From assembly GCA_965249725.1 (NCBI GenBank), contig CBDFMQ010000001.1, forward strand, positions 32,001 through 96,000: a DNA stretch of 64,000 nucleotides, given 5' to 3'. A program made the translations under genes and the position numbers. The notes under the pieces were generated by a model, which worked only from the letters and a program-made list of their open reading frames with translations, was not told the DNA's origin and ran no database searches. The stretch is from Longimicrobiales bacterium (GTDB lineage: Bacteria; Gemmatimonadota; Gemmatimonadetes; Longimicrobiales; Gaopeijiaceae). Positions 5,192 through 64,000 of this stretch are shown here, piece by piece. Position 1 is the stretch's first letter. Each line of letters opens with the position of its first letter.

Positions 5192-5195
5192 CGAC

Positions 5196-5396: not shown

Positions 5397-6202
5397 AACA
5401 CGACGAATACCACCGCCAGTTCGCCGATGCGATCATCGAGCAGATCCGCCAGGGCACCGCGCCGTGGCAGAAGCCCTGGGGGCCGGGCGAGCGCGTGCTC
5501 CCCACGAACGTCGATACCGGACGCTCCTACTCGGGAGGGAACAGCCTGCACCTTGCCGCCGTCCAGCAGGAGCGCGGCTACGGCGACGTGTGCTGGGGCA
5601 CCTACCGTCAGATCCAGGCCCGGGGCGGCCAAGTCAGAAAAGGCGAGCAGGGCACCCGCATCCTCTCATTCCAGGACCACCGGAGGATCGCCGTCACCGA
5701 CGAGCGCGGCCGGCCCGTCAGGGACAACGAAGGCAATCGCGTCTACCGCCACGAGCGGATGCGCGCGCCTGTCGTCCGGCAGTACAACGTCTTCAACGCC
5801 GAGCAGGCCGACGGGTTGCCCGCGCGGCCCGCGCCCGCTGCCGAACCGCTCTGGAGAGTCCACCAGCACGCCGAGAGGGTGCTGGAGGACAGCGGGGTCC
5901 CCGTCCGTCACGTGGCCGGCGACCGCGCGTTCTACTCGCTGAACAACGACGAGATCGTGCTCCCGGAGCGGGGACAGTTCCCCTCGGCCAACCACTACTA
6001 CCAGACCGCCCTGCACGAGCTGGGGCACAGCACCGGCCATCCCGAGCGGATGAACCGCGCAACGCTCACCCAAGGGATGAACGACGGGTTCGGCTCGCCG
6101 GCCTATGCGAAAGAGGAGCTACGCGCGGAGATCAGCGCCATGATGACCATTATCCGGAGGATCGCTCGCGTGGTGTTGAGTTGGATCCTCAAGAAGATCT
6201 GA
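5393..6202 (+). pseudogene. ardC: ArdC-like ssDNA-binding/zincin antirestriction protein, C-terminally truncated
   Basis: APWQKPW, YSGGN, HELGHSTGH, YAKEELRAE; similarity stops after AMMT (~6148). Confidence 0.8.
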
Positions 6203-6255
6203 CGACGGCCCGTCTCCACCTGCCACCTCGCGCGTCCCGCTATCGCTTTCCGATC

Positions 6256-6579
6256 CTAGGCCCTGCGGATCGCGGCTCCCACCACCGCGGCGGTCGAAGC
6301 CAAGACGGCGGGGAACAGCAGGGTCGCGAGCAGTAGTGCTCGGCCCGGCAATCCCATGATGGCACCCAGGGACACCGAGAGCTCCGATACGGGTCCTGCC
6401 CACCAATTCCACGCCATCAGGGCGCCCCACGCCAACAGTGCACTGATTCCGGCGGTGGCCGCAGCGGTACGGTCCGCCGAACGCCAGGCTCCATAGGCCA
6501 GTCCCAAAGCGGGAACGGCCCACCACCCAAGCGCCGCGGTACCCACGGCCATCGCGCCGGCCAGGACTAGCAGCGTCAC
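6256..6579 (-). CDS. Small multi-pass membrane protein
   Basis: Hydrophobic 107-aa ORF downstream of the acylase. Confidence 0.6.
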   Translation of the reverse strand: MTLLVLAGAMAVGTAALGWWAVPALGLAYGAWRSADRTAAATAGISALLAWGALMAWNWWAGPVSELSVSLGAIMGLPGRALLLATLLFPAVLASTAAVVGAAIRRA

Positions 6580-6601
6580 CGTTCGCCCCTCAATCGAAGG
6601 G

Positions 6602-21012: not shown

Positions 21013-22050
21013 GTGGACGTAGACCCCCGAGACCCGTTCTGGCTGTCATCGTACTAGCGCTCGCAGGTGCTGTCCTTTTGGTTCGGATTCCTCCGGGACG
21101 GCCCGGCCGGCGACGGCCTATTGGTTTCCGGCACGGTAGAGGCTACGGAGGGCCAACTCGCCTTCCAGTCGGCAGGTCGAATTCTGGAGGTGAACGCGAG
21201 CGAGGGCGATCGGGTGACCGCCGGCCAGCAGTTGGCCACCCTCGACCGGTCCGAACTGGATGCCCGCCGAGCCCAGCTTCTCGCTCAGCTCGCTGCGGCT
21301 CGCGCCGGTCTGGCGGAGCTTCGGAGCGGATTCCGCGAGGAGGAGGTGGCTCAAGGGCGTGCCGGCCTCCGGGCTTCCGAGGCGCAGGTAGCCGACGCCG
21401 AGCGTGATCTGGCCCGCGCCCGGCTCCTGCACGACGGTGGGGCCGTGAGCGAGGAGGCGTTGGAGAAGAGCGAGCTCAAGTTGAGCCTGGCTCGTATCCA
21501 AGCCGACGAACGCGGGGAGGCGGTTCGCCTTCTCGAGTCAGGGCCCCGTCCGGAGAGGGTCGAGGCTCAGGCCGCCCAGGTGGCCGCGGCAGAGGCCGGG
21601 ATTCGCGTCGTGGACGCCGCCCTGTCCTTTGCGGCGATCACGGCTCCCTTCGACGGCGTGGTGACCGTGAAGCACCGAGAGCCGGGTGAGACCGCTCCGC
21701 CGGGGGCACCCGTCCTGACTCTTATGAATCCGGACGATCGTTGGGTACGCATCTACGTGCCGGAAGACCGGATCGGTCGGGTGAGCCTGGGGCAGGCGGC
21801 CACCATCACCTCCGACAGCTATCCGGACCGAAGCCACGAGGGGCGGGTGACCTTCATCGCTTCCGAAGCGGAATTCACCCCGAAGAATGTCCAGACGCCT
21901 GAGGAGCGGGTGAAGCTCGTCTATGCCGTGAAGGTCCAGGTGGTGGGCGACGGGGGGTACGAACTCAAGCCGGGGATGCCTGCCGACGTGCGACTGGACG
22001 ACGGCCAACTGGCCGAAGGGCAGCCTGGCGACCCGGGCGCGACTCCGTGA
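21009..22050 (+). pseudogene. HlyD/efflux RND periplasmic adaptor, frameshifted at ~21076-21079
   Basis: Coupled ATG and TM in one frame; SGTVEA...AEFTPKNVQT body in the +1 frame; removing one T joins them. Confidence 0.75.
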
Positions 22051-23021
22051 ACGATGAAACCGGTCCGGCGGTCCGGACCGACGGGCTGACCCGATCGTTC
22101 GGGCCCCTGGTCGCTGTCGACGGCCTATCCCTCGAGGTAGCGAGGGGAGAGCTGTTTGGCCTCGTTGGCCCCGATGGCGCGGGAAAGACGACCACGCTGC
22201 GCATGCTGGCCGGCGTCCTGCCCCCGACGAGCGGGCGGGCATGGGTCTTCGAAACGGACGTCGGTGAGGACCCGGAGGCCGCTAAGGCCAAGACCGCCTA
22301 TATGTCGCAGCGCTTCGGCCTGTACCATGACCTGACGGTGAGCGAGAACCTGGACTTCTACGCCGATCTGTTCGGTGTTCCCCGATCGCAGCGACCGGAG
22401 AGGCTCGCTCGACTGTACGAATTCTCGGGCCTCGCTCCCTTCCGGGACCGCCGCGCCGAGGCTCTCTCCGGTGGCATGAAGCAGAAGCTCGGTCTCTCCT
22501 GTGCCCTGATCCATCGCCCGAGTCTGCTTCTCCTGGACGAGCCGACCTTCGGGGTGGACCCGATCTCACGACGCGATCTCTGGCTGATCATCCACGAGAT
22601 GGTCGACGAGGGCGTGACGGTGGTGGTGAGCACGGCCTACATGGACGAGGCCGAGCGATTCGATCGGCTGGCGTTTCTCGAGGCGGGCAAGACCCTCTCC
22701 GTGGATACACCCGATGCACTGCGAAAGGGCTTGTCAGGGCGGCTGCTTTCAGTGTGGGCAGGTGATCGCTCGCGGGCGGCCCGTGACGTGTTGAGAGCGA
22801 CCCCGTCCGTCGCCAGTGCCTCTGTGTTCGGAGACCGCCTGCACGTAGTGGTCGACGACGCGGAAGCGGGTATGGATGTCGTCCGGGCCGCCCTCGGCGC
22901 GGAGGGGTTCTCCGAGGTGGACGTAGACACCATCGCGGAGCCCTCGCTCGAGGACGTGTTCATGGATCAGGTGGAAGGAACCGGCGGAGGAAGCGGCGGA
23001 GATGGCGATGACATCGTCTGA
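22047..23021 (+). CDS. ABC transporter ATP-binding protein
   Basis: GPDGAGKTT, LSGGMKQK, LLLDEP. Confidence 0.92.
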   Translation: MNDETGPAVRTDGLTRSFGPLVAVDGLSLEVARGELFGLVGPDGAGKTTTLRMLAGVLPPTSGRAWVFETDVGEDPEAAKAKTAYMSQRFGLYHDLTVSENLDFYADLFGVPRSQRPERLARLYEFSGLAPFRDRRAEALSGGMKQKLGLSCALIHRPSLLLLDEPTFGVDPISRRDLWLIIHEMVDEGVTVVVSTAYMDEAERFDRLAFLEAGKTLSVDTPDALRKGLSGRLLSVWAGDRSRAARDVLRATPSVASASVFGDRLHVVVDDAEAGMDVVRAALGAEGFSEVDVDTIAEPSLEDVFMDQVEGTGGGSGGDGDDIV

Positions 23022-23415: not shown

Positions 23416-24666
23416 TCACCCCTGAATCCTCCTTTCGATGTACTGAACGGCGGCCCGGTAGGTGTCAGGAATAAGGTGGGCGTAGGTCTCCTCGACGACC
23501 TTGGTCGTGTCACCTAGCAGGGTGGCGATCACATTGAGCGGAACGCCGTCCTGGGCCAGCCATGAGGCATAGGTGTGACGGCCACTGTGTAAGGTGAGCC
23601 CGTCGCCTTCCCTTCCGTACTTGATCCCGGCCAGCTCGAAGGCGTCCTGGGTCCAGCGAGCCGAGGTGCCGGCCGCCACAGGCTGGTCCCCGCGATGAGG
23701 GCTCAGAATCAAGTACCGCTCCCCGGCATACCCTCTGCGGATGTGATCTTCGATGATCGTGACGAGGCTCTCGGTGATCGGTACGTCCCTTTCACCACGC
23801 CGCGTCTTCGGCCTCCAGGAGTAAACATCCTTTCGGGACTGTACCCGGATCAGTGGTTCGCTGCCATCTAGAAGGACATCAACGCCAGTCCTTAGATGTA
23901 GTATCTCGCCTTGGCGCAGGCCCGCGAGGAACGCAATCGCGATCATGGCGCGGTGTGGGGTCCCAATCATGCTACGATCCAGGTCCGCCCACTCCGGCGG
24001 AGTCAGGAACACGGCCCGCGTGGGCCGGATCTCGGGCATGTCGATGCCCTTCCAGGGGTTGCTACGGATCGCGGGCTGTACGTTGCGGCGAGCGAGCAGA
24101 TCGGCCTCCTCGTCCATGACCATGCTCCAGAGTGCCCCGCACACGACCTGGCAAGCCCCTTGGCTGGCAGGTGCCCACGGACGCCCCGCTGTGCTTGCTT
24201 TCGGGCCGTGCAGGTACGCGCGCGCCTCGTCGACCGTCAGCTCTTCCATAGGGAAGTCCGGGCCGACGTCTCTCTCAAGGTGCCCGAGAACGGTCCGATA
24301 CTTCTTGATGGTGGCCCTGCCGCGTGTGGCCTCTTTGAGCCTCAGGAACCTCTCGACGGCCGGCCCGAGCCTAGGCGAATCAGAGCCCATGCGCCGCAGC
24401 TTGGTGGCGTCGCCGTTACGTAGCGCGGCCTGAGCGTCGGTGATGTGCATGTCGCCACGGCGGATCGCCTCAAGCACGTTCCAGTCGCCACGATCCATGA
24501 GCTGAGTCAAAACGGTATGGCGCTCGGTGGCCACATCCCGATCGCCGGTCCTGAGCGAGATCGCCAGGCGGCCGCCGTTGAACCGCGAGTGCCTACGGTC
24601 GAAGTAGGCGCGGCCAGCTCGCCATACGAGGCCCTTGGGGGCACGTGAGCGCTTTCTAGGACTCAC
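23416..24666 (-). CDS. int: Tyrosine recombinase (integrase)
   Basis: GLRQGE, LHSGRHTYAS, TYAH. Confidence 0.93.
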   Translation of the reverse strand: MSPRKRSRAPKGLVWRAGRAYFDRRHSRFNGGRLAISLRTGDRDVATERHTVLTQLMDRGDWNVLEAIRRGDMHITDAQAALRNGDATKLRRMGSDSPRLGPAVERFLRLKEATRGRATIKKYRTVLGHLERDVGPDFPMEELTVDEARAYLHGPKASTAGRPWAPASQGACQVVCGALWSMVMDEEADLLARRNVQPAIRSNPWKGIDMPEIRPTRAVFLTPPEWADLDRSMIGTPHRAMIAIAFLAGLRQGEILHLRTGVDVLLDGSEPLIRVQSRKDVYSWRPKTRRGERDVPITESLVTIIEDHIRRGYAGERYLILSPHRGDQPVAAGTSARWTQDAFELAGIKYGREGDGLTLHSGRHTYASWLAQDGVPLNVIATLLGDTTKVVEETYAHLIPDTYRAAVQYIERRIQG

Positions 24667-24901
24667 TGCCCACCAGCTCCTCACACTCTTGGACGAAGCG
24701 ATCGACAGCCTTCGGCGAGATTCGGTAGCGTGCCTTGCTAGAGCGCGACACGTTCAGCACCCCCGGAGACTTCAGGTGGCCTTCGTGGATCATCTTGAGG
24801 ACGAAGCCGGTGGACATTCCGCCGATGCGCTCTGCCGCCTGTTTCGGGGAGAGCCAGTTGTACTCGGCCTCGTACTGCTCTGGGGTTTTCGTTCTGCTCA
24901 C
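24656..24901 (-). CDS. Excisionase-like HTH protein
   Basis: WLSPKQAAERIG...YRIS..AVDRF; abuts int. Confidence 0.75.
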   Translation of the reverse strand: MSRTKTPEQYEAEYNWLSPKQAAERIGGMSTGFVLKMIHEGHLKSPGVLNVSRSSKARYRISPKAVDRFVQECEELVGSES

Positions 24902-26316: not shown

Positions 26317-26663
26317 TGGCCTGTCCTCACGACCCAGACGGCGCACCGCCGTCCGGTATGCGGAGAATTTCTACGGTGCCCGGAGTCGCGGATCATGCCG
26401 AGCTTCACGAGCTCGTTACGGCGGGCGCATACGCTCTGGCGCAGCATCGACAGGCCGCCTTCTATCTCCGCGTCGGTGGCCCCAGCGTCGCCCCGTGCCA
26501 GGATGTAGCCGTAGACCTCGGCCCGCTTGGTCGGCGCACATTCAGCTGCGCTCCGTGCCGCCTCGCGCGACGTGTCGGAGCCCTTCTGGTGCGGGGGCAG
26601 CCCTCCGTAGGGCTGCCGCTCATCGAGGAAGAGCGGCAGGCCCGTCAGTTCGGCCGGCCTCAC
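26313..26663 (-). CDS. Winged-helix phage protein
   Basis: GATDAEIE...SVCARRNELVKLG.IRDSG. Confidence 0.7.
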   Translation of the reverse strand: MRPAELTGLPLFLDERQPYGGLPPHQKGSDTSREAARSAAECAPTKRAEVYGYILARGDAGATDAEIEGGLSMLRQSVCARRNELVKLGMIRDSGHRRNSPHTGRRCAVWVVRTGQ

Positions 26664-27796
26664 ACCGGCCTCGGGATGGAGTGTTCTGCCCGCAGAGGTA
26701 CTGCCACAAAGACCACCGGGTCGCCGTCTACGGGTTCGATGCGTATCGGCCTAGTGGCTTCGCTCAATTTTTCGCTCAATCTCAGGATCATGCGTCCACT
26801 GACACTGCGCGCGATCTGGCGCAGATACACAGCGTTGACAGCGAACGTGATGTCTCCCTGAACGTCGGCGGCGAGCGTCTCCTCGTATCCGCCCCTGTCT
26901 GTGGAGTCCGAGCGGAAGAGCGCCCTACCGTCGTAGAGATCGACCTGAAGCCGGAAGAAATCCTCGCGCATGACGGAAACAGCCAGCCCACAGGCTCTGG
27001 CAACGGATGTCGCTTCCAGCTCGGCGCTGACCGGGCAATCGGCGGCGTCAGGGGTCACACGATCGAGGTCGGGATACTTCCCTTCCTTTTGCGATACCCG
27101 AAGCGTCTCGTACCCAGCGGCGAAATCGGCCCAGCGGCGATCCCAGCGAAAGCGTACATCCTTATCGCCCGCGCGCTTGGCCAATGCCGCCAGCAGAGGT
27201 GCGTCCTGTCGCGCAATCATCAGGGACAGCCCGGCGGGCGCCTCGATCCGTGAGTCGTACCGGCCGAGCACGTGGCCGCTCGTGGCTTCGACTGTGAGGT
27301 GCCCTTCGCGCTCCCGAAAATGCACACAGGCGAGGAGCGGGCGGGCGACGTCCTCGGTGGACGCGGCCCAGGTGGTCCGGTCCAGCGCGTCGCGTAGTAC
27401 GGATGCCGGCACCTCCACCTCTCCCGCCGACTCGATGTCCCCGAACAGAGGCCAGTCGCTAACCGATAGCGTGGGCAGGGTCACCGAGGCGGAACCGCCG
27501 CGCGCCGTGCGTGGCCCTTCACCGTTTCCAGACAACTCGATCGTCTCGCCGGATGCGTGCTCGGCGAGCGCCAACAGGCCGTCGGGCCGGATCAACATCC
27601 GGCCTTCCTCGCACACGTCGCACTCGACCTGCACAGAGCCCCAACGCTGCAGGTCCGTGGCCTGGAGCTCCAACCCGTCCTCGCGGGCCGCAACATGGAT
27701 CATGTCCAGCACCGGCAAAACGGAGCGGGACGCCTGGACCTTGGAAACAGTGGCCAGTGCGGTGCGTAACGCCTTGGCTTCGACGGTTGCTTTCAC
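26660..27796 (-). CDS. dnaN: Phage-encoded DNA polymerase III beta sliding clamp
   Basis: LPVL, ATDL, ATSGHVL, GKYPD, N..YL; 378 aa. Confidence 0.85.
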   Translation of the reverse strand: MKATVEAKALRTALATVSKVQASRSVLPVLDMIHVAAREDGLELQATDLQRWGSVQVECDVCEEGRMLIRPDGLLALAEHASGETIELSGNGEGPRTARGGSASVTLPTLSVSDWPLFGDIESAGEVEVPASVLRDALDRTTWAASTEDVARPLLACVHFREREGHLTVEATSGHVLGRYDSRIEAPAGLSLMIARQDAPLLAALAKRAGDKDVRFRWDRRWADFAAGYETLRVSQKEGKYPDLDRVTPDAADCPVSAELEATSVARACGLAVSVMREDFFRLQVDLYDGRALFRSDSTDRGGYEETLAADVQGDITFAVNAVYLRQIARSVSGRMILRLSEKLSEATRPIRIEPVDGDPVVFVAVPLRAEHSIPRPV

Positions 27797-32082: not shown

Positions 32083-32331
32083 TCACCCCGCCGCCTCCGT
32101 CTCGGCCAACACCCGCTCCCGAGCCTCGTCAGCCGCCTTCTCGGCGGCCTCGAGCTTGTCCAGCGTCGCGTTGAGCCGAGCCTCGAAGTCCTCGGGGGGC
32201 TTACGGAGTCCGCGCAGGTAGCGGCTGAAAAGGGAGCGGTCGATCCCCATCTCCAGGGCTACGCGCTCCTGGGGAATGCCGAGAAGGGCTAGGCGAACTC
32301 TGATCTTCTGTGAACTGGTTTCAATATCCAC
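32083..32331 (-). CDS. Cro-like XRE HTH
   Basis: QERVALEMGIDRSLFSRYLRG; divergent from cI. Confidence 0.8.
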   Translation of the reverse strand: MDIETSSQKIRVRLALLGIPQERVALEMGIDRSLFSRYLRGLRKPPEDFEARLNATLDKLEAAEKAADEARERVLAETEAAG

Positions 32332-32394
32332 AGAGAGGAGCTATGTGTACTCAGTTCAAGTGTCAACCCTTATGGTGCCCTATACTTTTAGGTC
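32332..32394. promoter_or_regulatory. Divergent cro/cI promoter region
   Basis: Minus-strand TTGACA (32361-32366)-17-TAGCTC; plus-strand TATACT near 32382. Confidence 0.6.
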
Positions 32395-33183
32395 ATGCTT
32401 GGCACACGGTTAGCGAAATTGCGGAAGCGGGCCGGGTTGTCCCAACACCGGCTAGCGATGGAACTCGGCGAGAGATACGATCACTCGGTCATATCCCACG
32501 TCGAGCATGGCCGCTCCAACCTCTTGTTCGATGGCGTGGTCCGGGCCGCCCGTGTCCTCGGCACCTCGGTCGACTACCTGGCTGGCCTAACCGATGACCC
32601 AGCCCCGGTGGACGACCGGGTGGAGGAGGAGAGGCGGAGCCGTGCGAAGCTGGAAGCCGCGCTACGGAGCGCCGAGGAGGAGCGCGACCGCCTGCGGGTG
32701 CAGGCCGCCGCTACGGCCGAGCTCCCGGACCCCGACGTGTCCCCGATCCAGTCAGCGCCGGGATGGCATGACGAAGACTATGAGTCTGTCAGACGCTACG
32801 AGTCCGAGGATGTAGCGCTCGCGGCGGGAACCGGAACGTTCGCTGACCAAGAACCCGTCGCAGGTGAGGTCAAATTCCGCACAAGCTGGCTGCGCAAGCG
32901 AAGGCTGAGGGCCAAGGGCCTCTTCCTGGTCGATGTATCAGGCGATAGTATGGAGCCCACGATCTTCGACGGAGACGCGGCGCTTGTCGATGAGACCCAC
33001 AGATCACCACGCAGCGGTAAGATCTACGCACTTCAGGCGGGAGACGGTCCACTGGTCAAGCGTGTTCGCAAACGCGACCACCGCTGGTGGGCCGACAGCG
33101 ACAACGAAGAGTACGAGCCGCAGCCGCTCGACGATCGAGCCCGAATCATGGGCCGCGTCGTCTGGTGGGCGCACACGGACTGA
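32395..33183 (+). CDS. CI-like repressor (XRE HTH + S24 peptidase)
   Basis: N-terminal HTH; AAG cleavage site, GDSMEP, VKR. Confidence 0.92.
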   Translation: MLGTRLAKLRKRAGLSQHRLAMELGERYDHSVISHVEHGRSNLLFDGVVRAARVLGTSVDYLAGLTDDPAPVDDRVEEERRSRAKLEAALRSAEEERDRLRVQAAATAELPDPDVSPIQSAPGWHDEDYESVRRYESEDVALAAGTGTFADQEPVAGEVKFRTSWLRKRRLRAKGLFLVDVSGDSMEPTIFDGDAALVDETHRSPRSGKIYALQAGDGPLVKRVRKRDHRWWADSDNEEYEPQPLDDRARIMGRVVWWAHTD

Positions 33184-35122: not shown

Positions 35123-35437
35123 TCACACCGTCGGCTGAATCGGCGCGATCTTCTCCAAAGCCCTCTTTGTCTTCTTGTCCCGCTGGGCACCCCATAGGTC
35201 GTAGGCGCGCTGCAAGTTAAGCCAGAATTCCGGTTCGATGTCGAACAGCCGTCCCAGGCGCAGCGCAGTGTCGGTCGTCACCCCGCGCTTCCCGTTGACG
35301 AGTTCGTTCACACGCACATAGGACATGCCCACGGCGTTGGCCAGCGCTTTTTGGGGCATTCCCAGCGGCTCAAGGAACTCCGTCAGAAGGATTTGCCCCG
35401 GGTGTGTCGGTTTCCGCGCTTTCGGTAGCCTAACCAT
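35123..35437 (-). CDS. higA: HigA (VapI) antitoxin
   Basis: PTHPGQIL..EFL, TALRL..F..WLNLQ. Confidence 0.92.
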   Translation of the reverse strand: MVRLPKARKPTHPGQILLTEFLEPLGMPQKALANAVGMSYVRVNELVNGKRGVTTDTALRLGRLFDIEPEFWLNLQRAYDLWGAQRDKKTKRALEKIAPIQPTV

Positions 35438-35466
35438 CTTGGAACTCCCGTCGCTGTTGGTGGTCC

Positions 35467-35760
35467 TCAGTGGTAATCGGTGATCTCAACGTCCGCCGGA
35501 CCCTCTGCGGTCCAGCGGAAGCAGATCCTGTACTGGTCATTGATCCTGATGCTGTGCTGTCCCCGGCGGTCGCCTTCCAGCTTCTCCAGCCGGTTTGCCG
35601 GAACCTTGCCGACACTTCTCAAGGACACCGATGCGTTCAAGACCTCCATCTTCTTTGTGGCGTTCGAGTGTAGCTGCTGCGGCAGGAGCCGCCGCGTAGC
35701 CTTCGTATCTTCGCCGTCGAATATGGATTGTGTGCTCTTACATTTAAACGATACGATCAT
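35467..35760 (-). CDS. higB: HigB toxin (plasmid maintenance killer type)
   Basis: MIVSF, NRLEKL.GDR.GQHSIRINDQYRICF.W, DYH. Confidence 0.92.
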   Translation of the reverse strand: MIVSFKCKSTQSIFDGEDTKATRRLLPQQLHSNATKKMEVLNASVSLRSVGKVPANRLEKLEGDRRGQHSIRINDQYRICFRWTAEGPADVEITDYH

Positions 35761-56454: not shown

Positions 56455-57837
56455 TCAACCGAGGGGTTCCGTCTCACGCTCACGCGGCAGCGTGATGTCG
56501 GGCCACTCCTCAAGTTCACCGAACAACTCGTCACCATCGAGCGCGGCCCGAGCCTCGTTCTCGTCGATCACCTGCGCATCGACCGCGACCTTCACCGCCT
56601 CAGCTCGCGCCTTCGATACAACCGCCCGTTCCTCGTCCGAAGCGTCGATGATCGAGGGCCAGGAGTACGGCAGCCGCTCGGCCAACCCTGCGGAACGCGC
56701 CAACACCATGTCGAGCGTACGCAGCGGTTCGGTGAGCAGCCGCTTTTGCTGGGCGGCGACATTGGATGCGTAGTTCTTCATGTCGCTCTCGCCGGTAGCG
56801 TTCATCCCCACCGGTGACTGGCCCCAGAACCGGGTCGCCGGGATGTCGGCCGCAGCCGCTAGGCGACGCGCGAATCGGTCCATGAGATCCGGCAACCCCG
56901 ACCAGGTCACGTTCACACGCTCGAACTCGTCGCCGGAATCGAGGAACATCGTGCGGTAAAGCGACTTGAACGTGTTGATCTCCTCGCCCATCTGGGCGGG
57001 CGTGGGGTCGTCGGGCTCGCCGCCACCCGCCATCGCTTCCCGCAGCCCCATGAGTTTGAGCACCGGGATCGACGCTTCGCTCGTCAGGTGGCTCGCCCCG
57101 GATGCGACGGCCTGATCCTGCAGCAGCGAGAGCAGCACGGGGATCACGCACGAGACGCCCCACTCGCGCTGATAGACGGTGTAGCCGGAAGCGGACAGGG
57201 GCGTCAGGCCATCGAACCGCAGCACCCGCGACGCGTGCACGTGGAACGGACGGCCCAGGGCCGGGGACATGTGGTACTCAAGCGTCTGCCCGTAGGTCGG
57301 CGAGTATGGGTTCTCGTCCCACGCGAAGCGGATCGCGTCGTGGCGGTCGAGCGGCAGCAGGTGGATCAGGTCACCCGGTCGCACTGCCTCCGGATCGAGC
57401 GGTTCCGACAGTTCGGCCTCGCGCGTGACCATGACGAGCAGGCCCGTGCCGTAGAGCCGCCCAGCCTTCATGGCGCGCGTGAGCCTGGGCACGACCTGAT
57501 ACTCGGCCTCAGCCTCCTTCATCGCCTCGACCTGGCCCGCGTCCTCGCCCTCGAAGCTGCGCCAGCGGATCGTCATGTCGTCGATCGGAATGTCGATGAA
57601 CTTCCGGCATGCCCACGACTCCACATAGATCGTTTCCAACTGCTGGCGGCTCTGTAGATACGTCGGCTGAAAGAACCCCGCATCGCTCTTGTCCGTGTGT
57701 CCGCCTGCGCCCGAGAGCGGGTTGCGGTAGCCGCCATGCGTGAGCGCTGGCCCGCTCCCGTAGGTACCGAACCCGGCGGTGCGCGCTGGCTTGCCCTGTG
57801 CATTCAGGATCACTGGTCGTTTCATTTCGCTCTTCAT
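56455..57837 (-). CDS. Portal protein (DUF1073-like)
   Basis: Follows terL; RLYG, HASRVL.F, DIP.TR..G.SP.G.NATG.SD..NY. Confidence 0.88.
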   Translation of the reverse strand: MKSEMKRPVILNAQGKPARTAGFGTYGSGPALTHGGYRNPLSGAGGHTDKSDAGFFQPTYLQSRQQLETIYVESWACRKFIDIPIDDMTIRWRSFEGEDAGQVEAMKEAEAEYQVVPRLTRAMKAGRLYGTGLLVMVTREAELSEPLDPEAVRPGDLIHLLPLDRHDAIRFAWDENPYSPTYGQTLEYHMSPALGRPFHVHASRVLRFDGLTPLSASGYTVYQREWGVSCVIPVLLSLLQDQAVASGASHLTSEASIPVLKLMGLREAMAGGGEPDDPTPAQMGEEINTFKSLYRTMFLDSGDEFERVNVTWSGLPDLMDRFARRLAAAADIPATRFWGQSPVGMNATGESDMKNYASNVAAQQKRLLTEPLRTLDMVLARSAGLAERLPYSWPSIIDASDEERAVVSKARAEAVKVAVDAQVIDENEARAALDGDELFGELEEWPDITLPRERETEPLG

Positions 57838-59192
57838 CTCAACCTCAGTCCGTATCGTGAATCGACCCCAAATGCCAATATCGCAGCATCATAGAGGTCG
57901 GGTGAAGGCGCGCCGTCCGGGCACTTCTCGATCTTCACGCGCCCGCTCGCGTCTTCTTCCCACTCCGGCTGGCCGAGTTCCGCGAGAAAGGATTCCAGCC
58001 TTGGGATCTTCGGATCGATGAACAGGCAGTACTCGGGGTTCACGTCCTCGCCGTCCATGAACCGCCGGGTCATCATCGCCCGCAGCCGGAGCGCCCAAGC
58101 GAGCTGGGCGTTACGCCTGGAGAAGAAGTCGGCGTTGGTCGCGCCTCGCGAGTACTGCGTTTTCTCGCCCGTGACCTTGCCGCCGAAGTTTACCGGCCGC
58201 GCGCTGTACGGCCTCTGCCCCATGTCGCGCAGATGAGAGCGCACGCCCGCACCCACGCCGCCAGCGTCGTAGTGCAGCACCGACGCCCCATGCTCGCGGC
58301 ACCATCGGTCCGCACGACGCGCCGTGTCGCCGAGCGAGCTGCCGTGCCAAGATTCCACATGGAGCATGCACGGGCCTTGGCGAGCGACCAGCGCGTTCAA
58401 GTCCGCGCCGGTATCGGCCACGTCCAGGCCGGCGTGGAGCATCCCCTTCGTATCGCCGCGCCGATCCCATGCGTCCACACAGGCTTGTAGCATCGCGTAG
58501 GGCAGCACCTTCCGGGCGTCACCTTCGTCGTCGCACTCCCCGAGCCAGATATGCGCGTAGCGATCCGGCTCGTCGCGCTGGCAGATGAGCCGTTCGGCCT
58601 CCAGTTCGGCAGGAAACCACGGGTTGTCCGCGTGGTTGACCTTGAGCACGACCGCGTTCTCGAGCCGTCCCGACGACGCGCAGAAGTCACGCCACACCGG
58701 GTCGCTACGGTAGCGCGGGTTGAACGTGAACCACAGCTCTGAGCCGGGCTTGCGAATCGTCGGGTACAGGATCTCCCGGCTCCGCTGGCTCATGCGCTGC
58801 GCCTCCTCGACCCAGACCGCGTCTACCGCCTCCCAGCCGCGAATCGCTTCCTCTGTGCTCGTGCTCATGCCACGGAAGAAAAACAGCGACCCGTTGCGAC
58901 CTCGGATGTAGTCGCGCTGGACCTCGAAGTGGGCCCCTAGCCCCAAGCGCCCGATACTGTCCTCGATCGTGCGCTTCGCCGACTCATGGATCGACTTCTG
59001 GTACTCGCGTACACACGCCACCCGAAGCGGGCGCTCCGCCGCGCGGAGCACCAGCAGCGTCGCGGTCGTCCACGTCTTACCCGACCCGCGTCCGCCGTAG
59101 AGCACCTTGTAGCGCGCCGGCCTAGTGAGCGGCTTCGCCCAGGCGGGCAGCTGCGCCCGGGCTGGCCGGTCGAGGACAGTGGAGAGGGTCAT
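57834..59192 (-). CDS. Terminase large subunit (PBSX-like)
   Basis: GGRGSGKT, WVEEAQ, PTIRKPGSE.W..FNP, GLDVAD, SPDL.DA. Confidence 0.95.
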   Translation of the reverse strand: MTLSTVLDRPARAQLPAWAKPLTRPARYKVLYGGRGSGKTWTTATLLVLRAAERPLRVACVREYQKSIHESAKRTIEDSIGRLGLGAHFEVQRDYIRGRNGSLFFFRGMSTSTEEAIRGWEAVDAVWVEEAQRMSQRSREILYPTIRKPGSELWFTFNPRYRSDPVWRDFCASSGRLENAVVLKVNHADNPWFPAELEAERLICQRDEPDRYAHIWLGECDDEGDARKVLPYAMLQACVDAWDRRGDTKGMLHAGLDVADTGADLNALVARQGPCMLHVESWHGSSLGDTARRADRWCREHGASVLHYDAGGVGAGVRSHLRDMGQRPYSARPVNFGGKVTGEKTQYSRGATNADFFSRRNAQLAWALRLRAMMTRRFMDGEDVNPEYCLFIDPKIPRLESFLAELGQPEWEEDASGRVKIEKCPDGAPSPDLYDAAILAFGVDSRYGLRLR

Positions 59193-59216
59193 GCCTGAGC
59201 GAGGCCGCGCCGGAGC

Positions 59217-59585
59217 TCAGTCCGCATCGTCCCCCCCATCGGCCCCGTGCCACTCAACCTCCAGCTTCACCGGTTCCGATTGCACTGCCCCGCTGTGCTC
59301 CAGCGCCACCTTGTCACCGTAGACTTGGGGCCGGCGGCGTGACAGGAACCAGCGGGCCGTCTGCATGTCGCCCTTGAGACTCGCAGTGATTACCGCCAGC
59401 TCAATGCTGTCCAACGCCGTCTCGATCGCCGTGTTCCACCCTGCGTGGAACGCCTCCGACTCAGCGCGCCGCACGTAGACCGTCGTCCGCCCCACACCGG
59501 CGACTCGGCACGCCTCACTGACGTTCGCGAACTTGGCCAACGAGGCCAGGAACGCTTTTTCCCACTTACGCGCGCGCGTAGGCAT
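59217..59585 (-). CDS. Terminase small subunit
   Basis: FL..L....NVSEAC..AGV.R.TVY; W.L.RR.P..YG. Confidence 0.75.
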   Translation of the reverse strand: MPTRARKWEKAFLASLAKFANVSEACRVAGVGRTTVYVRRAESEAFHAGWNTAIETALDSIELAVITASLKGDMQTARWFLSRRRPQVYGDKVALEHSGAVQSEPVKLEVEWHGADGGDDAD

Positions 59586-60395: not shown

Positions 60396-60411
60396 GTGCT
60401 TTCATGTCCAC

Positions 60412-61230
60412 TCACGCCACGCTTCTCCGGTCATGCCCTTCGACCGTGACGTGCCGGAAGTTCTGAGGGCCCAATCGTGAGGCGAGCCGCTGCCAGCCCT
60501 CAGAAGTGCCGAAGCGCTGAACAAGCCCTTCCGGTGTGTGGTTGCTCGTGATCACGGTCGGATGCCCTTCCCGCGCGTTGACCAGGTCGACCAAGATGCG
60601 GAGCGCGTCGGGCGTCGCCTTCTCTCGGCCGAGGTCGTCGATGACGAGAAGGTGAGCTCGTTCCCTCCGTTCGAGGATCGCTGACGTGCCGCCGGTGCCG
60701 TACGTGTCCTGGATCATCGTGATGAGTCGGTCCGCCCGATCGAAGATCACACGCTTAGCGTCAACTTTTTGATCTAAGAGCACGGCCCGCACGATCGCGG
60801 CGGCGACGTGTGTCTTGCCGGATCCCAACGGACCCATGAGAAGCAACCCGAGCACTGCACCCCATCGTCCAGCTCTCAGCGTCTCGTCGACGAACTGGCC
60901 TGCGGCTTCGAGCGGTTGCGGACCGCAGTCGGTCGCGTCGAAATGCTCGCCCCGGGTCTTGCCCTCGATGAGCAGACAGCGGCCGTGTTTGCGGACGTTC
61001 ACGCCAGCGGCGTTGAGAAGCGGTAGGATCTGCTCTTTGCGGGTTGGCCCAATGGGCGACTGGGGCAGCGCGGTGCCCTCTTTCGCGACGCACTCCCCAC
61101 ACGTCTTCGTTGCGTATGGCGCGGCCCTCCCGTCGATCACCATGCGCTTGCGGGTGAACGACTTATCGCAGTCGAGGCAGGTCGCTTCCTCCTCCACGAA
61201 GTCAACGGAGGTCTTAGAGGAACGATCCAC
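60412..61230 (-). CDS. DnaC/IstB-like AAA+ helicase loader with Zn motifs
   Basis: CxxC x2, GPLGSGKTH, LVIDDLG.E, TVITSN; start may be 61305. Confidence 0.88.
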   Translation of the reverse strand: MDRSSKTSVDFVEEEATCLDCDKSFTRKRMVIDGRAAPYATKTCGECVAKEGTALPQSPIGPTRKEQILPLLNAAGVNVRKHGRCLLIEGKTRGEHFDATDCGPQPLEAAGQFVDETLRAGRWGAVLGLLLMGPLGSGKTHVAAAIVRAVLLDQKVDAKRVIFDRADRLITMIQDTYGTGGTSAILERRERAHLLVIDDLGREKATPDALRILVDLVNAREGHPTVITSNHTPEGLVQRFGTSEGWQRLASRLGPQNFRHVTVEGHDRRSVA

Positions 61231-62086
61231 GCGCTCGGCCCGACGTTGTCGCCTGGTCTCTTGTTGCTCCTGCCTCTCGCTTTCGCTCTGCGTCTCGTTT
61301 GGCATCGGTTATTGATCTCACCTTGTAGCGGATTTTCGATTGGAGGTTTGCAATATCCCCGGGTGGGCCAGGGAAGTATCTCCCGATCTCGTCGCTCTGC
61401 CGAAGCTCGTTGAGGCATCCGGCGATGATCTTGCCCCTGCCTTCGCGGATATGGCTTCCGTCTCTAGCCATCCATAGTCGCTCATCTGATTCCTCGGCGA
61501 TTCCGGCGACGGTATGCACGTAAGCGAGATGCTTTCCGGGGTCGACTTTCTCGGTGACATAATCGATCAACGGCTTGCGCGTATCGACCAGAGATTCTCT
61601 CTCCGAGATGAACTCGCGCGCACGCGCGTCTAGAGGAGGAGGTGGTGGAGGTTTAGAGGTGGTGGAGGTAGGGGCTGTATGGTCCGCACCTGTGCCGGGT
61701 AGAGGGCCCGTATGGTCCGCAAATTCACTTTGCTGGTCCGCACCTGTGCGGTGTAAACCTTTAGACCGCATCTCTGCGGTGTATAATTCGGCCTTTAGTC
61801 CGCAAATATCCGGTGTAGAACGGCTCCCACACCACTCGAAGACTGGTGAGCCACGTCCTCCTGGACTCTTTGTCACGTAACCGTGGACCTCGAGGAGGCG
61901 GACGTGACGGGCAATCGTGTCACCACTCGGAGCGCCGTGGAGGATGCCGGCGAACTCGTCGTAGGGGATGGCTACGGGCTCCTCTTGGGAAGCCGTCGCT
62001 GCAACATGGACACCGATGATACGGGCCGTGTCGGTGAGGCGCGCATCGTAAAGGAGCTCCGCCAAGGTGGGCTGGGCTTCGGTCAA
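61214..62086 (-). CDS. Phage replication initiator (HTH)
   Basis: TTG start overlapping the upstream stop; HTH; internal iterons; upstream of dnaC. Confidence 0.7.
61678..61817. repeat. Iteron-like CCGCA-N4-TGCGG repeats, probable phage origin
   Basis: CCGCA at 61684, 61717, 61738, 61766, 61800. Confidence 0.7.
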
Positions 62087-62172
62087 GGAGCCCCCCTTTT
62101 GCAGCCTTCTGAGACCACAGAACAGCCCACAGTCGGGTTCCACGTCGCGTCGGTCCACTCAATCCTGCTCAC
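62083..62172 (-). pseudogene. 29-aa N-terminal stub of a Gp37/Gp68 (DUF5131) radical-SAM-like protein
   Basis: [37 protein letters not shown]. Confidence 0.8.
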
Positions 62173-62201
62173 GAAACCCTCCGAAAACCTCAAGAAAACA
62201 C

Positions 62202-62230
62202 TTGACTCCATAGGGCATATGCCCTATACT
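62202..62230 (+). promoter_or_regulatory. Strong sigma70 promoter with perfect 18-bp palindromic operator
   Basis: TTGACT-17-TATACT; ATAGGGCATATGCCCTAT at 62210-62227. Confidence 0.85.
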
Positions 62231-62278
62231 CAATGAGTGGCCAGGGCAAGCCAGCCCGACCCGAGAAGGAGAAGGGAC

Positions 62279-62557
62279 ATGACCTTTCGGATCTTCATCG
62301 CGAACGCTTCCCCTCAGAGGATCGCCGAGATCGGCCAGGGCCTGGACATGAAAGGCACGGTGTTCGGTGAGGCCATCGGCTTCGGCTCCTGGGGTATCGA
62401 GCCCACGGTCGTCACCGAGATGACCGACCAGACTCACAGCCGGATTCGGCTCCTCGTGGACGCGATCCTCGCCGAGTACCCCGACGAAGAAGCCGTCCAC
62501 GTGATCGCCGGTCGGAGGAAAGGCAAGGACTGGTACCGGGATGGGCGGGTCATTTGA
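62279..62557 (+). CDS. Putative SAM lyase-like (ferredoxin/PII-fold) protein
   Basis: AAGGAG RBS; G.F...G.E.TVV.E...EY..EEAV.V pattern resembling T3 SAMase. Confidence 0.5.
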   Translation: MTFRIFIANASPQRIAEIGQGLDMKGTVFGEAIGFGSWGIEPTVVTEMTDQTHSRIRLLVDAILAEYPDEEAVHVIAGRRKGKDWYRDGRVI

Positions 62558-62623
62558 CCCGCACCCACCCGGGTGGCGTGCGGCGATGACCACAACAACT
62601 ACCTTAGACAGGAAGGCAGACCA

Positions 62624-62836
62624 ATGACGGAGGCTACGATGGACGTGATCGGGAAAGAGGCTCTGGCGGTAGTGATCGAGGCGATCGCCATCGGCGGCAG
62701 GAACGCGGAGGAGGCGGCCGAGAAACTCTGGCCTGCCTTCAAGGGAGCCGTGGCGGGAGCGCTGGAGGAGCTCGACGACGATCAGGCCGAGGGCATTGCG
62801 AACTGGCGCGAAGAGCGCCACGCCGACAAGGGATGA
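62624..62836 (+). CDS. Small acidic helical protein, anti-defence candidate
   Basis: AGGAAGG RBS; 70 aa, 16 D/E vs 7 K/R. Confidence 0.6.
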   Translation: MTEATMDVIGKEALAVVIEAIAIGGRNAEEAAEKLWPAFKGAVAGALEELDDDQAEGIANWREERHADKG

Positions 62837-63042
62837 GCACCAGCCAGAAGACCCACGCCGAACAAATGGACTTGCTCCGCGTGAGGATCGCCCAGTCGGA
62901 ACTCTCGGCTCGGCGGTTCGCGGTGGACGTGCTCCATCGAGACGAGCGGACGATGAGACGCTGGCTCTCTGGAGAGTCGCCGATCCCAGCCGTTGTGCTC
63001 GACTGGCTCGAGTATCCCGAGAAAGCGCCCTGGCCGTTGTAG
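62833..63042 (+). CDS. Small XRE-type HTH regulator, Aca-like
   Basis: LSARRFA..VL.RDERTMRRWLSGESPIP; last gene, ATGA-coupled. Confidence 0.75.
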   Translation: MSTSQKTHAEQMDLLRVRIAQSELSARRFAVDVLHRDERTMRRWLSGESPIPAVVLDWLEYPEKAPWPL

Positions 63043-63078
63043 TTCTCCGGCCCGTGACCACCTCTCTACCTGGGAACA

Positions 63079-63306
63079 TCACTTCCGCAGTCTCATTCCG
63101 GGCCCCTCGGGCTCCTGCCACTCGCCACTCTCCAGCAGCTCCAGCGCCCGCCCCGCGATCGCCTCGAAATGCCCTGCACGGTGCCCGAGATCCCGCATCG
63201 TCTCTAGCCGCTCCATCAGTTTGTCATACGTCCCGTGCGGACAGCCCGTCAGCGTCTGCCGCGCTATACGCTCCAGCTCGCGTGGCACCAAGGCCGGTTG
63301 CCTCAT
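63079..63306 (-). CDS. Hypothetical phage protein
   Basis: Abuts the upstream ORF. Confidence 0.5.
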   Translation of the reverse strand: MRQPALVPRELERIARQTLTGCPHGTYDKLMERLETMRDLGHRAGHFEAIAGRALELLESGEWQEPEGPGMRLRK

Positions 63307-63816
63307 TCACTCGCTCCCCTTCGGCAGCAACCGCAGCGCACCGCTTCCCGGCTGCAGCGACATCCGACGTGCCACCAGCTCGGCCATCGTGACCACCTCG
63401 TCGGATCCATCGTCCCACACTTCCACGTTCGCCATGAACGCGCCCGCGATGTCGAACAGGCCCGTCTCTACCGCGAGCAGTGCCTGCTCCACGAAGTCCC
63501 TCAGCTGACGCCACGCGATCCGGTACGCCAGTTCCTCCTCAACCCATTTCTTGCACTCATGCTGGTGGCGGTTCATGCGATGATTCCAGGGCTTCTTCTC
63601 TTGGATGATCTCGGCCACTCTCTCCACTCGCGCTTCAAGGCGGACGGGGACCTGGCCCTGTGGCGTCTCGATCGCAAACCGGACACCCCGCAGGCCGTGA
63701 TCTCCCCATATCATCTCGAAGCGGGTCCCTCCATACGCTCTGACGAGCTGCATGATCTCCGCCGCGCTCTGCTCGGGCTCGACCGTGGTGGATTCGTACT
63801 TGATCGCCTGGCTCAT
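63307..63816 (-). CDS. Phage hypothetical protein
   Basis: Y..TTV....S..EI..L...YG; R.AWR.L.D.V. Confidence 0.65.
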   Translation of the reverse strand: MSQAIKYESTTVEPEQSAAEIMQLVRAYGGTRFEMIWGDHGLRGVRFAIETPQGQVPVRLEARVERVAEIIQEKKPWNHRMNRHQHECKKWVEEELAYRIAWRQLRDFVEQALLAVETGLFDIAGAFMANVEVWDDGSDEVVTMAELVARRMSLQPGSGALRLLPKGSE

Positions 63817-63887
63817 GCGGACACCCCCGCGTCGGTGGGGAGCGGCAAACGATCGAGGGCGTCGCCCTGGCGGACCTCCCAGCTCAT
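63813..63887 (-). pseudogene. 24-aa N-terminal stub of an N4/N6 DNA methyltransferase
   Basis: MSWEVRQGDALDRLPLPTDAGVSA*; GGAGG RBS, ATGA overlaps at both ends. Confidence 0.6.
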
Positions 63888-64000
63888 CCGCCCTCCCCCG
63901 CGCTCGCCACCGACGCCTTCGGTTCGTACCCTAGAGCGTCCATCGTCGAGCTCTGCAACGCTCTGTAGTGCGCCAATTGCGCTTCCAACGAATCGAGGGT
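63884..64000 (-). CDS. 3' end of a hypothetical phage gene (partial)
   Basis: Open frame from the window edge to TGA at 63884. Confidence 0.4.
   Translation of the reverse strand, partial: TLDSLEAQLAHYRALQSSTMDALGYEPKASVASAGEGG

Follow-up and report, generated by a model that had tools for sequence, protein, structure and literature searches.

Regulators of the Aca type are the most productive guilt-by-association handle for anti-CRISPR (CRISPR, clustered regularly interspaced short palindromic repeats) and other counter-defense genes, and the known Aca families come mainly from Proteobacteria, Firmicutes and Actinobacteria. A three-gene unit of comparable layout, comprising two small cargo genes (g1 and g2) and a terminal helix-turn-helix (HTH) gene (g3), lies in a prophage of a Longimicrobiales bacterium from Gemmatimonadota, a common soil phylum. 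The unit is located near the right end of the 64,000-nucleotide (nt) stretch of contig CBDFMQ010000001.1 that was analyzed here as a whole and is called the window below.

The closest described systems are the operons of Aca1, Aca2, Aca10 and Aca12. As described in 2026 by the groups of Fineran and Weinberg (PMC13551039), these operons carry an inverted repeat over the promoter, with the transcript start about 10–15 nt downstream and an RNA hairpin right past that start. The hairpin ends about 10–20 nt ahead of the first start codon, and that of Aca1 consists of a lower stem of three conserved pairs, no more than two unpaired nucleotides, and an upper stem that covaries. Further RNA motifs are located between genes, and several neighboring operons share the motifs of one regulator. 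Aca1 and Aca2 bind their own RNA motifs in vitro, through which Aca2 represses translation, and titration or an effect on mRNA stability has been suggested as the role of the Aca1 motif (PMC13551039). The paper makes no mention of Gemmatimonadota, ArdC or DUF932.

A sequence-only reading of the window had proposed that g3 is a new Aca-like autorepressor and that both cargo genes counter host defenses. The regulatory half of this proposal holds up by comparison with related loci. The assertion about both cargo genes is plausible, but g1 and g2 match no known family. We interpret the unit, with a probability of roughly 0.6 to 0.65 for the statement as a whole, as an accessory cassette, self-contained and autoregulated, which belongs to a temperate phage of Gemmatimonadota, carries anti-defense cargo and is organized like an acr-aca operon. 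Strong comparative evidence suggests that the HTH protein, its DNA site and a leader hairpin travel together while the cargo changes. An acr-aca-like regulatory design thus appears well supported by sequence comparison, and it is likely that the HTH protein represses its own operon through the operator. An anti-defense function for the cargo of the window itself stands at about even odds, the case being built on the cargo of homologous cassettes (ArdC, a DNA methyltransferase, LPD29 and DUF932) and on the predicted fold of g1, which resembles S-adenosylmethionine (SAM) lyases. There is no support for an anti-CRISPR role in particular.

Promoter, operator and leader hairpin

The anatomy of the unit is as the sequence-only reading described it (see the table of features below), with one omission: a conserved leader hairpin between the promoter and g1 had been overlooked. 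Direct reading confirms the TTGACT-17-TATACT promoter as well as the perfect palindrome that occupies its spacer and extends over its −10 box. A sigma-70-like consensus scan of positions 61800–63400 also returns this promoter as its one site, with 10 of 12 matches (shuffle mean 0.2). Even when as many as three mismatches are tolerated, the palindrome occurs a single time in the window (chance mean 0.01; one of 100 shuffles yielded one match), and it is unique in the 4.16-Mb genome. Likewise, the ribosome-binding sites and the ATGA coupling that had been assigned to the three genes are all seen, although the previously given starts of g1 and g2 were each off by one base, which is trivial. The opposition of the unit to the replication operon is also borne out, with the initiator-like and DnaC-like genes lying to its left on the minus strand.

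To place this arrangement in context, we assembled 52 loci that carry a relative of g3, of which 16 derive from genomes and 36 from IMG/VR. The 42 loci with clear matches were retained in addition to the window, and a non-redundant set of 40 was formed by removing L023, L026, L034 and L047 as duplicates and adding the metagenome contig L104. The genome loci are mostly, indeed almost only, from metagenome-assembled genomes of Gemmatimonadota. In an unbiased palindrome search of the 1.6 kb upstream of each HTH gene, TAGGGC-N4-GCCCTA recurs. When the sites are aligned, a −35 box (TTGAC or TTGCG) is followed after 3–4 nt by a 16-bp palindrome, the last bases of which start a TAnnnT −10 box, and this overlap of operator and −10 box (GCCCTA-TAnnT) is found in most related loci. 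With one mismatch or fewer, the operator is present within 2 kb upstream of the HTH gene in 14 of the 40 loci, compared with one downstream and none in reversed upstream controls. Relaxing the search to two mismatches gives 21 loci upstream, four downstream and five in the reversed controls. The family core is TAGGGC-N4-GCCCTA, and its innermost part, GGGCA-WW-TGCCC, is retained even in the divergent sites of L028, L035, L037 and L040. Conservation of this kind would fit the invariant recognition helix of the HTH family (see below).

Some loci contain more than one copy of the regulatory elements. In L008 there are two HTH genes, and an operator, a promoter and a leader accompany each of them. 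L014 has five promoters with a TAGGGC-N4-GCCCT(A/G) operator inside about 5 kb (positions 2920–7670), most of which precede a different small hairpin instead of the canonical leader, and the whole looks like the regulon of one HTH protein.

The leader of the window can be written GGCC-A-GGGC-AAGCCA-GCCC-GACC and lies 8 nt past the −10 box. It probably begins at or next to the transcript start, whose position is judged here from the −10 box only. Related loci carry the form (G)GTC-A-GGGC-AATCCC-GCCC-GAC(C) at 8–15 nt past the −10 box. The consensus structure computed by RNAalifold is the same as the one drawn by hand, in which outer and inner stems of four pairs each are interrupted by a bulged A and the loop has six bases. 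A covariance model, R1, built from 19 leader copies finds one strong match in the whole genome of the host, at window positions 62236–62264 (E value 6.8e-7), and 30 strong matches in 435 kb of related loci, every one of them on the strand of the HTH gene. In an alignment of 28 distinct copies, which was fitted to R1 and hence leans toward the structure, 95.5% of cells pair, compared with 25–45% when the partners are slid; a MAFFT alignment is similar, with 91.9% paired. Two outer pairs covary (GC 12, UA 5, CG 3 and AU 1 for one; UA 10, CG 8 and UG 8 for the other), and the four inner pairs are invariant across the 28 copies. An exact 17-mer from the leader retrieves nine IMG/VR contigs, seven of which encode the HTH protein; of the two that lack it, one ends 588 nt past the motif and the other has 1.4 kb downstream. 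Rfam families do not match positions 61900–63300 at E ≤ 1.

Half of the operator, TAGGGCA(A/T), resembles the 5′ arm of the leader, CAGGGCAA, and one protein could therefore read both, as Aca1 and Aca2 do. In L010 the leader is present together with only half an operator. Three further cases (L021, the L022/L023 pair and L061) possess a second, promoterless leader hairpin located 16–20 nt before the ribosome-binding site of an internal gene. These internal copies are preceded by another conserved hairpin, CCGGGGGTGCAATGCCCCCGG.

This preceding hairpin, written more generally as CCGGGGGTGCAA(T/G)GCCCCCGG, stands at the joint between two cargo genes in L021 (813–833), L022/L023 (about 3660–3680) and L061 (about 3435–3455), and it may mark the edge of a cassette or serve in RNA processing. 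The leader itself, with its bulged base and its internal copies, also brought to mind the attC sites of integrons. This role was rejected: no recombinase was found linked to the cassettes, only three of 26 having an integrase beside them, and attC is a far longer element.

The regulator and the cargo genes

All three genes show the coding pattern of the genome, with 0.78–0.83 G+C at third codon positions and more G+C at first than at second positions. The identification of g3 as a terminal 69-aa HTH protein obtains no support from Pfam, where nothing exceeds the curated cut-off and no HTH family (HTH_3, HTH_31 and others) is matched at E ≤ 1, and PHROGs likewise gives no match above threshold. 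A few weak rows for g1 to g3 (PaREP1, Phenyl_P_gamma, and phrog_4583 “transcriptional repressor” at E 0.17) were disregarded. It is the predicted structure that bears the identification out. The AlphaFold2 model has four helices and a predicted local distance difference test (pLDDT) score of 84.9, and it falls among the XRE-type HTH proteins by Foldseek as well as by VIA-align. A search of a protein collection recovered 21 clusters related to g3, with 55–76 residues, in which L14, R27, F29, A30 and the motif RDERTxRRW are invariant, the last being the recognition helix of the family.

Comparison with known Aca families gives a divided answer: g3 shares the XRE fold of Aca1, Aca2, Aca7 and Aca10, and no sequence match is significant. 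The VIA-align Z values, which fall in the range of common small folds and therefore show fold and not family, are 7.5 for Aca7 (root-mean-square deviation (rmsd) 2.9, 64 residues aligned, 16% identity), 7.4 for Aca2 (2.4, 61, 16%), 7.0 for Aca10 (2.4, 57, 18%), 6.6–6.8 for Aca1 chains (2.5–2.9, 62–64, 29–31%) and 5.7–6.2 for the controller proteins C.Esp1396I and C.AhdI (2.7–3.3, 59, 5–15%). A g3 profile run against PDB sequences found nothing significant, with YdiL at E 0.23, HigA at 0.27 and Aca1 chains at 0.74–1.2; YdiL and Aca2 are both members of DUF1870. We conclude that g3 is an XRE-type HTH protein in a family of its own, outside any solved Aca family by sequence, and that “Aca-like” here denotes its mode of action and not family membership. 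The gene occurs in five of 401 genomes of the host phylum, including that of the window, a sporadic distribution such as a mobile gene has.

Since the six homologues of g1 (92–94 aa, 48–74% identity) have 32 invariant columns, g1 is a real protein under constraint; IMG/VR contains no relatives of it. Its model (pLDDT 75) adopts a beta-alpha-beta-beta-alpha-beta fold. Foldseek ranks the PII-like protein SbtB first (E 1e-3, TM score about 0.6) and a phage SAM lyase nineteenth. A scan of 48,161 chains that is independent of Foldseek instead puts the phage SAM lyase 6zm9_A at the top, with a Z of 10.0, an rmsd of 2.5, 87 of 92 residues aligned and 12% identity; common ferredoxin-like domains come next with Z ≤ 8.2, and a SAM-AMP lyase reaches 7.3. 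A fold search of BFVD retrieved uncharacterized phage proteins only, at E ≥ 1e-3.

Prediction of a g1 homotrimer from an alignment of our own, with SAM carried along unscored, gave a value of 0.93, compared with 0.00 for the best of three controls. This mark is attained by 20 of 30 structures with same-chain pairs and by one of 23 single-chain structures, and because trimers of this fold are present in the PDB, the result may partly reflect likeness to them. Contact agreement between runs was at least 95%, and pLDDT for the partner at least 93. In the model, the invariant segment 29–40 (GFGxWG) contacts residues 12–31 of the neighboring copy. On our own reading, invariant G36-x-W38, E41 and E47 might correspond to the conserved SAM-lyase residues. 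On the strength of these models, g1 might be a SAM lyase or another PII-type binder of small molecules, which we hold to be less likely than not, and the narrower assignment as a SAM lyase proper is unlikely.

A hairpin, listed in the table, spans the g1 stop codon. The g1 homologue of L104 has a counterpart at its own stop codon, GGCCGGGTC-GAAT-GACCCGGCC (about 440–465), in which the non-coding arm has changed in step. This element may set the ratio of g1 to g2 and g3, or may be a processing or stability site.

The g2 protein has 16 Asp/Glu and 7 Lys/Arg residues by our own count of the translation, and the protein collection holds two close homologues. Searches by tblastn over the 52 loci detect g1 in none and g2 in one, L007. 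There the g2 relative (3822–3998, 41% identity) stands immediately ahead of the HTH gene, behind a different first gene of 174 aa and with no g1. It may be that g2 is tied more closely to the HTH protein than other cargo is, possibly as a modulator of the repressor. Elsewhere, at least three contigs contain a relative of g1 as well as one of g2, and two of them are 2,552 and 51,958 nt long. The metagenome contig L104 holds the full g1-g2-HTH cassette, with identities of 48%, 44% and 54%, and also has the operator TAGGACATATGCCCTT, the leader hairpin and an upstream terminator.

In other cassettes the cargo differs almost completely. Cargo was called between promoter and HTH gene in the 25 cassettes with a recognizable operator, by a crude gene caller that missed at least one cargo gene (76 aa, L021 884–1111). 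Each cassette has one to five cargo genes encoding proteins of 32–317 aa, and an all-against-all BLAST comparison leaves 41 singletons and only four pairs, which come from near-duplicate contigs. This variability of cargo over 25 operons, together with the same palindrome upstream in 14 of 40 loci, is what the sequence-only reading would lead one to find among homologues of the HTH gene.

Of 43 non-redundant cargo proteins, three exceed the curated Pfam cut-offs. These are a full ArdC in L028 (ArdcN 120.5 bits and MPTase-PolyVal 129.4, with a PHROGs match to “anti-restriction protein” at E 2.7e-79), an LPD29 protein in L020 (63.2) and a DUF932 protein in L003 (31.0). A DUF5710 protein in L008 falls just under its cut-off (26.2, where 26.5 is required), L035 encodes a DNA methyltransferase by PHROGs (E 1e-48), and six further cargo proteins match PHROGs families with no assigned function. 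None of 45 proteins, g1 to g3 included, matches a PADLOC defense model. In conjugative elements, the “establishment” regions that are expressed early typically contain ArdC-N, polyvalent-protein domains and DUF932, and LPD29 also. The slot is exchangeable and, judged by the cargo of these relatives, most likely holds counter-defense or establishment genes.

The genes that flank the cassettes include terminase at five loci, DNA methylases at four, integrase and lysis genes at three each, RusA at two, a portal gene and a transposase. Because the flanking genes differ from phage to phage, the cassette is portable and not tied to the replication module. In L009, L029, L036 and L039, the 2 kb around the cassette include a gene for a DNA methyltransferase (C-5, Dam, N6_N4 and MT-A70 types), a hint of small counter-restriction islands.

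These observations suggest a simple scheme for the operation of the cassette. The strong host-type promoter would fire once the DNA enters the cell and drive g1, g2 and g3, the last being translationally coupled to g2. As g3 accumulates, it would bind, probably as a dimer, to the palindrome in the spacer and −10 box and shut the promoter. The conserved hairpin with which the mRNA begins has a 5′ arm like an operator half-site and would add a second layer of control, either through binding of the HTH protein, as for Aca1 and Aca2, or through stabilization of the mRNA. A bolder version, which we consider doubtful, sees a plug-in platform for counter-defense genes, in which the HTH protein reads GGGCA both as DNA and in the hairpin, internal hairpins are the joints at which cargo is exchanged, and g1 is a minimal trimeric relative of SAM lyases or PII proteins that destroys or sequesters SAM or a nucleotide signal. 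If this were true, g1 would represent a new family of anti-defense enzymes or sponges.

Alternative explanations and the phage setting

Several results weigh against our interpretation. On the side of the cargo, neither g1 nor g2 matches a Pfam, PHROGs or PADLOC family, a g1 profile has no significant match among PDB sequences, and the protein atlas offers only unnamed clusters for g1 (best score 0.81) and no usable match for g2. In related cassettes, 34 of 42 cargo proteins are without a PHROGs family at E ≤ 0.001, which parallels the low yield from Pfam. The host genome, which is 95.8% complete, gave no Cas1, no match to N6_Mtase (HsdM-type) and one open reading frame (ORF) with a PglZ domain only; for this reason the cargo should not be named “anti-CRISPR”. 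On the side of the regulator, the nearest structural neighbor of g3 is the antitoxin HigA2 (Z 8.2, rmsd 2.4, 65 residues aligned, 20% identity), and the structural alignments as a group speak to fold. The window leader alone, in a single-sequence fold, is no better than its shuffles (z −0.86). An exact 15-mer from the operator retrieves 38 IMG/VR contigs, only two of which have the HTH gene. The other 36, many of low G+C, were taken as chance or unrelated occurrences; the count equals the chance expectation in so large a collection, and a search from the DNA side of the operator is thus uninformative. The main datum against binding of the TAGGGC palindrome by the HTH protein everywhere comes from L018. 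Its HTH protein has the recognition helix RDERTIRRW, yet its promoter region (3250–5980) consists of four tandem units of TTGCGC, a spacer palindrome of a different kind (GTGA-N5-TCAC) and (T/C)ATACC, each followed by a leader hairpin. Here the HTH protein may act via the leader, or another repressor may hold the promoters. As a separate observation, the HTH frame of L018 is open for about 270 codons upstream and may be fused to a cargo-like N-terminal part.

Extended to all loci, L018 suggests that the target of the HTH protein could be the leader, as RNA or DNA, with the palindrome being bound by another factor from phage or host. This would account for L010, which keeps a leader beside half an operator, for the four leader hairpins of L018, and for the better prediction of the HTH gene by the leader 17-mer (seven of nine contigs) than by the operator 15-mer (two of 38). 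The invariance of the four inner pairs is also as expected for a sequence-specific protein site. Against it stand the enrichment of the operator upstream of the HTH gene (14 of 40 loci, compared with one downstream and none in the reversed controls), the operators in loci that have no canonical leader (L002, L009, L014, L036 and L040) and the likeness between half-site and leader arm, by which one protein could read both, and we judge it quite improbable. A different possibility concerns the purpose of the cassette, which might be a lysogenic-conversion “moron” that is active in the prophage and benefits the lysogen, through superinfection exclusion or some other host trait, with the HTH protein keeping expression low and steady. 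The unit does have its own sigma-70-type promoter, opposed to the flanking phage genes, and shares its strand with the CI-like repressor gene, as is typical of genes active in lysogens; in addition, few of the cargo proteins have a known function. Nonetheless, we regard a moron as unlikely. No cassette protein of 45 matches a defense-system model, the cargo that can be named is of the counter-restriction type (ArdC and DNA methyltransferase), and the combination of strong promoter, tight autorepressor and 5′ hairpin matches operons that act upon entry (PMC13551039).

Two further explanations were dropped in the course of the survey. If g3 were a developmental or replication regulator of the Cro/CI type, its palindrome would control the replication operon, and g1 and g2 would be ordinary early genes. 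The palindrome is indeed only 52 nt from the GTG start of the initiator-like gene (62158), or 124 nt from the alternative TTG at 62086, in a divergent intergenic region, and the five promoters with an operator in L014 are in keeping with a phage-wide regulator. However, the scan of 61800–63400 found no minus-strand promoter, the phage possesses a CI/Cro-like switch apart from the cassette, the genome has the operator only once, and in other phages the neighbors of the cassette are terminase, integrase, lysis, methylase or RusA genes and not replication genes. The idea was abandoned after the survey of flanks and is very improbable. Least credible is a toxin-antitoxin or addiction module in which the HTH protein is antitoxin and autorepressor and an upstream gene is the toxin, a view set aside after the cargo survey. 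The structural proximity of g3 to HigA2 speaks for it, toxin-first operons with a palindromic operator are known (HigBA), and this prophage already has a HigBA pair. Antitoxins, however, retain their cognate toxin, whereas the partner genes here change in nearly all relatives, number one to five per cassette and elsewhere include ArdC and a methyltransferase; g1 and g2, moreover, match no toxin family in Pfam or PADLOC. An autoregulated, acr-aca-like accessory cassette remains the interpretation that we favor.

Features of the cassette and of the prophage that houses it (window positions)
Feature	Position	Strand	Remarks
−35 box TTGACT	62202–62207	+	sequence reading and promoter scan
Operator ATAGGGCATATGCCCTAT	62210–62227		perfect 18-bp palindrome; takes up the spacer and reaches three bases into the −10 box
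−10 box TATACT	62225–62230	+	17-nt spacer from −35 box; overlapped by right arm of operator
Leader hairpin	62239–62261	+	outer stem GGCC/GACC with one C-A mismatch, then a bulged A; loop AAGCCA closed by inner stem GGGC/GCCC
Ribosome-binding site GAAGGAG of g1	62265–62271	+	7 nt before ATG at 62279
g1, cargo protein, 92 aa	62279–62557	+	conserved small family; predicted beta-alpha-beta-beta-alpha-beta fold and predicted trimer
Hairpin GGGCGGGTCA-TT-TGACCCGCAC	62543–62564	+	spans g1 stop codon
g2, acidic cargo protein, 70 aa	62624–62836	+	AGGAAGG 7 nt before ATG
g3, XRE-type HTH protein, 69 aa	62833–63042	+	proposed autorepressor; ATG overlaps g2 stop as ATGA
Tyrosine integrase	23419–24684		adjoins excisionase-like HTH_17 protein
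DNA polymerase III beta-clamp-like protein	26663–27796	−	DNA_pol3_beta N-terminal domain, E 2.7e-11; RecT-like and PDDEXK genes adjoin
CI/Cro-like switch	32086–33180		separate from the cassette
CI-like repressor	32395–33180		HTH and Peptidase_S24; divergent from Cro-like gene
HigBA pair	35123–35760	−	HigB-like toxin PF05015, E 1.1e-12, then HTH_3 antitoxin-like gene
Portal, large and small terminase	56455–59585		
DnaC-like helicase loader	60412–61305	−	IstB_IS21, E 8.7e-12; phrog_50, E 4.9e-31
Initiator-like ORF	61214–62158	−	contains internal iterons

The host genome consists of three contigs totaling 4.16 Mb with 64% G+C, and the window is part of a contig of 412 kb. The prophage that houses the cassette measures about 41 kb. 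Nearly all other phage genes are on the minus strand, so that the cassette is opposed to its surroundings. It diverges from the replication genes and converges with the four small minus-strand genes to the right of g3, which occupy the stretch from 63079 to about 64.5 kb. The HigBA pair is placed between the CI region and the tail genes. At the left end of the prophage, the tyrosine integrase gene stands beside a full-length ABC ATPase gene (22047–23018). At the right end, a 222-aa ORF (6730–7398 in L001, which corresponds to window numbering 64730–65398) represents the C-terminal part of an ABC ATPase only, covering positions 70–137 of the 137 in the profile, and is followed by an ABC-2 permease gene. 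The truncated ABC ATPase gene marks the right end of the prophage, and the phage seems to have integrated into an ABC transporter gene with partial duplication of that gene.

The initiator-like ORF matches no Pfam or PHROGs family. It contains four to five iteron-like direct repeats at 61676–61820, with the core GGTCCGCAC..TGTGCGG and a spacing of 28–54 nt, and the replication origin of the phage is probably located here, inside the initiator gene, as in lambda O. The TTG at 62086 may be the true start of this ORF, having a better ribosome-binding site than the GTG at 62158.

Among isolated phages, a blastn search with positions 60400–64000 produced zero matches, and tblastn with g3 produced only matches at E ≥ 0.02 inside unrelated genes. 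Metagenome contigs from three other studies contain the promoter and g1 to g3 in one piece with 10–20 differences, which shows only that close relatives of the phage exist elsewhere. The sequencing runs listed include no RNA run. Contigs from two runs (records of 2799 and 2692 nt) each match 1417 nt of the window, at 61680–63096. The match ends 54 nt past the g3 stop, and a mosaic boundary may flank the cassette on its 3′ side. A joint of 61704 to 63100 in the metagenome contig X5 is distrusted, one of its sides being 30 nt at 80% likeness.

Comparison with known systems

Our literature search found no report of anti-defense or anti-CRISPR genes in phages of Gemmatimonadota or Gemmatimonas. 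Restriction-modification C proteins and HigA2 antitoxins share with g3 a small XRE-type HTH and, as proposed for g3, autorepression at a promoter palindrome. In contrast to these systems, the cassette has no cognate toxin or restriction enzyme, and the partners of its regulator are hypervariable. The anti-restriction genes of the ArdC and methyltransferase types have members of the same types in sister cassettes, but g1 and g2 are unrelated to them.

With the phage SAM lyases Svi3-3 and T3 SAMase, g1 shares a PII-type ferredoxin-like fold and a predicted trimer, but it is about 40 residues shorter and has no detectable sequence similarity; moreover, by Foldseek it matches PII-like nucleotide binders such as SbtB about equally (E 1e-3). 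As described in two reports, SAM lyases are trimers with an active site between subunits that counter restriction and BREX (PMC7877911; 10.1101/2023.02.27.530186), and very few of their residues are conserved, those of Svi3-3 being Gly56, Tyr58, Glu69 and Gln104 (PMC7877911). A mini SAM-lyase-like g1, should it prove to be one, would be a concrete enzyme candidate.

The acr-aca1 operons of Pseudomonas phages (JBD30 Aca1; PDB 7C0G, 7VJM and 7VJN) share with the cassette a small terminal XRE-type HTH gene, a promoter inverted repeat and variable upstream cargo, as well as an RNA hairpin, made of two stems (lower and upper) with a bulge between them, that comes straight after the transcript start, the start being an inferred one in our case. 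Aca1 also has the highest identity to g3 among solved Aca proteins in the structural alignment. The two differ in their motifs, both of DNA and of RNA, in the host phylum, here Gemmatimonadota, and in that the cargo described here includes no known anti-CRISPR protein by Pfam, PHROGs or PADLOC. The acrIF8-aca2 operon of Pectobacterium phage ZF40, whose Aca2 is of the DUF1870 type, resembles the cassette in combining a promoter repeat with conserved hairpins in the 5′ untranslated region (UTR). There a single HTH protein exerts control at two levels through these elements (PMC13551039). Aca2 is larger than the 69-residue g3 and has an added dimerization part, and RNA binding by g3 is hypothetical. 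Internal copies of the leader (L021, L022 and L061) and several promoter units within one locus (L014 and L018) are additional features of the Aca design that recur here.

Taken together as a regulator sequence, a DNA operator and a model of the RNA or DNA leader, the elements described here offer a handle for counter-defense genes in Gemmatimonadota phages. This handle points to about 40 unrelated small proteins with no assigned function, which occupy the slot held by ArdC and a methyltransferase in sister cassettes. The design itself is known; what is new is the regulator family, its DNA and RNA motifs, the phylum and about 40 candidate cargo families. The cassette would be an independent and phylogenetically distant example of the promoter repeat and 5′-UTR hairpin described for Aca1 and Aca2 in 2024–2026, and it lends support to dual control at DNA and RNA as a general solution for genes that are switched on fast and then off.

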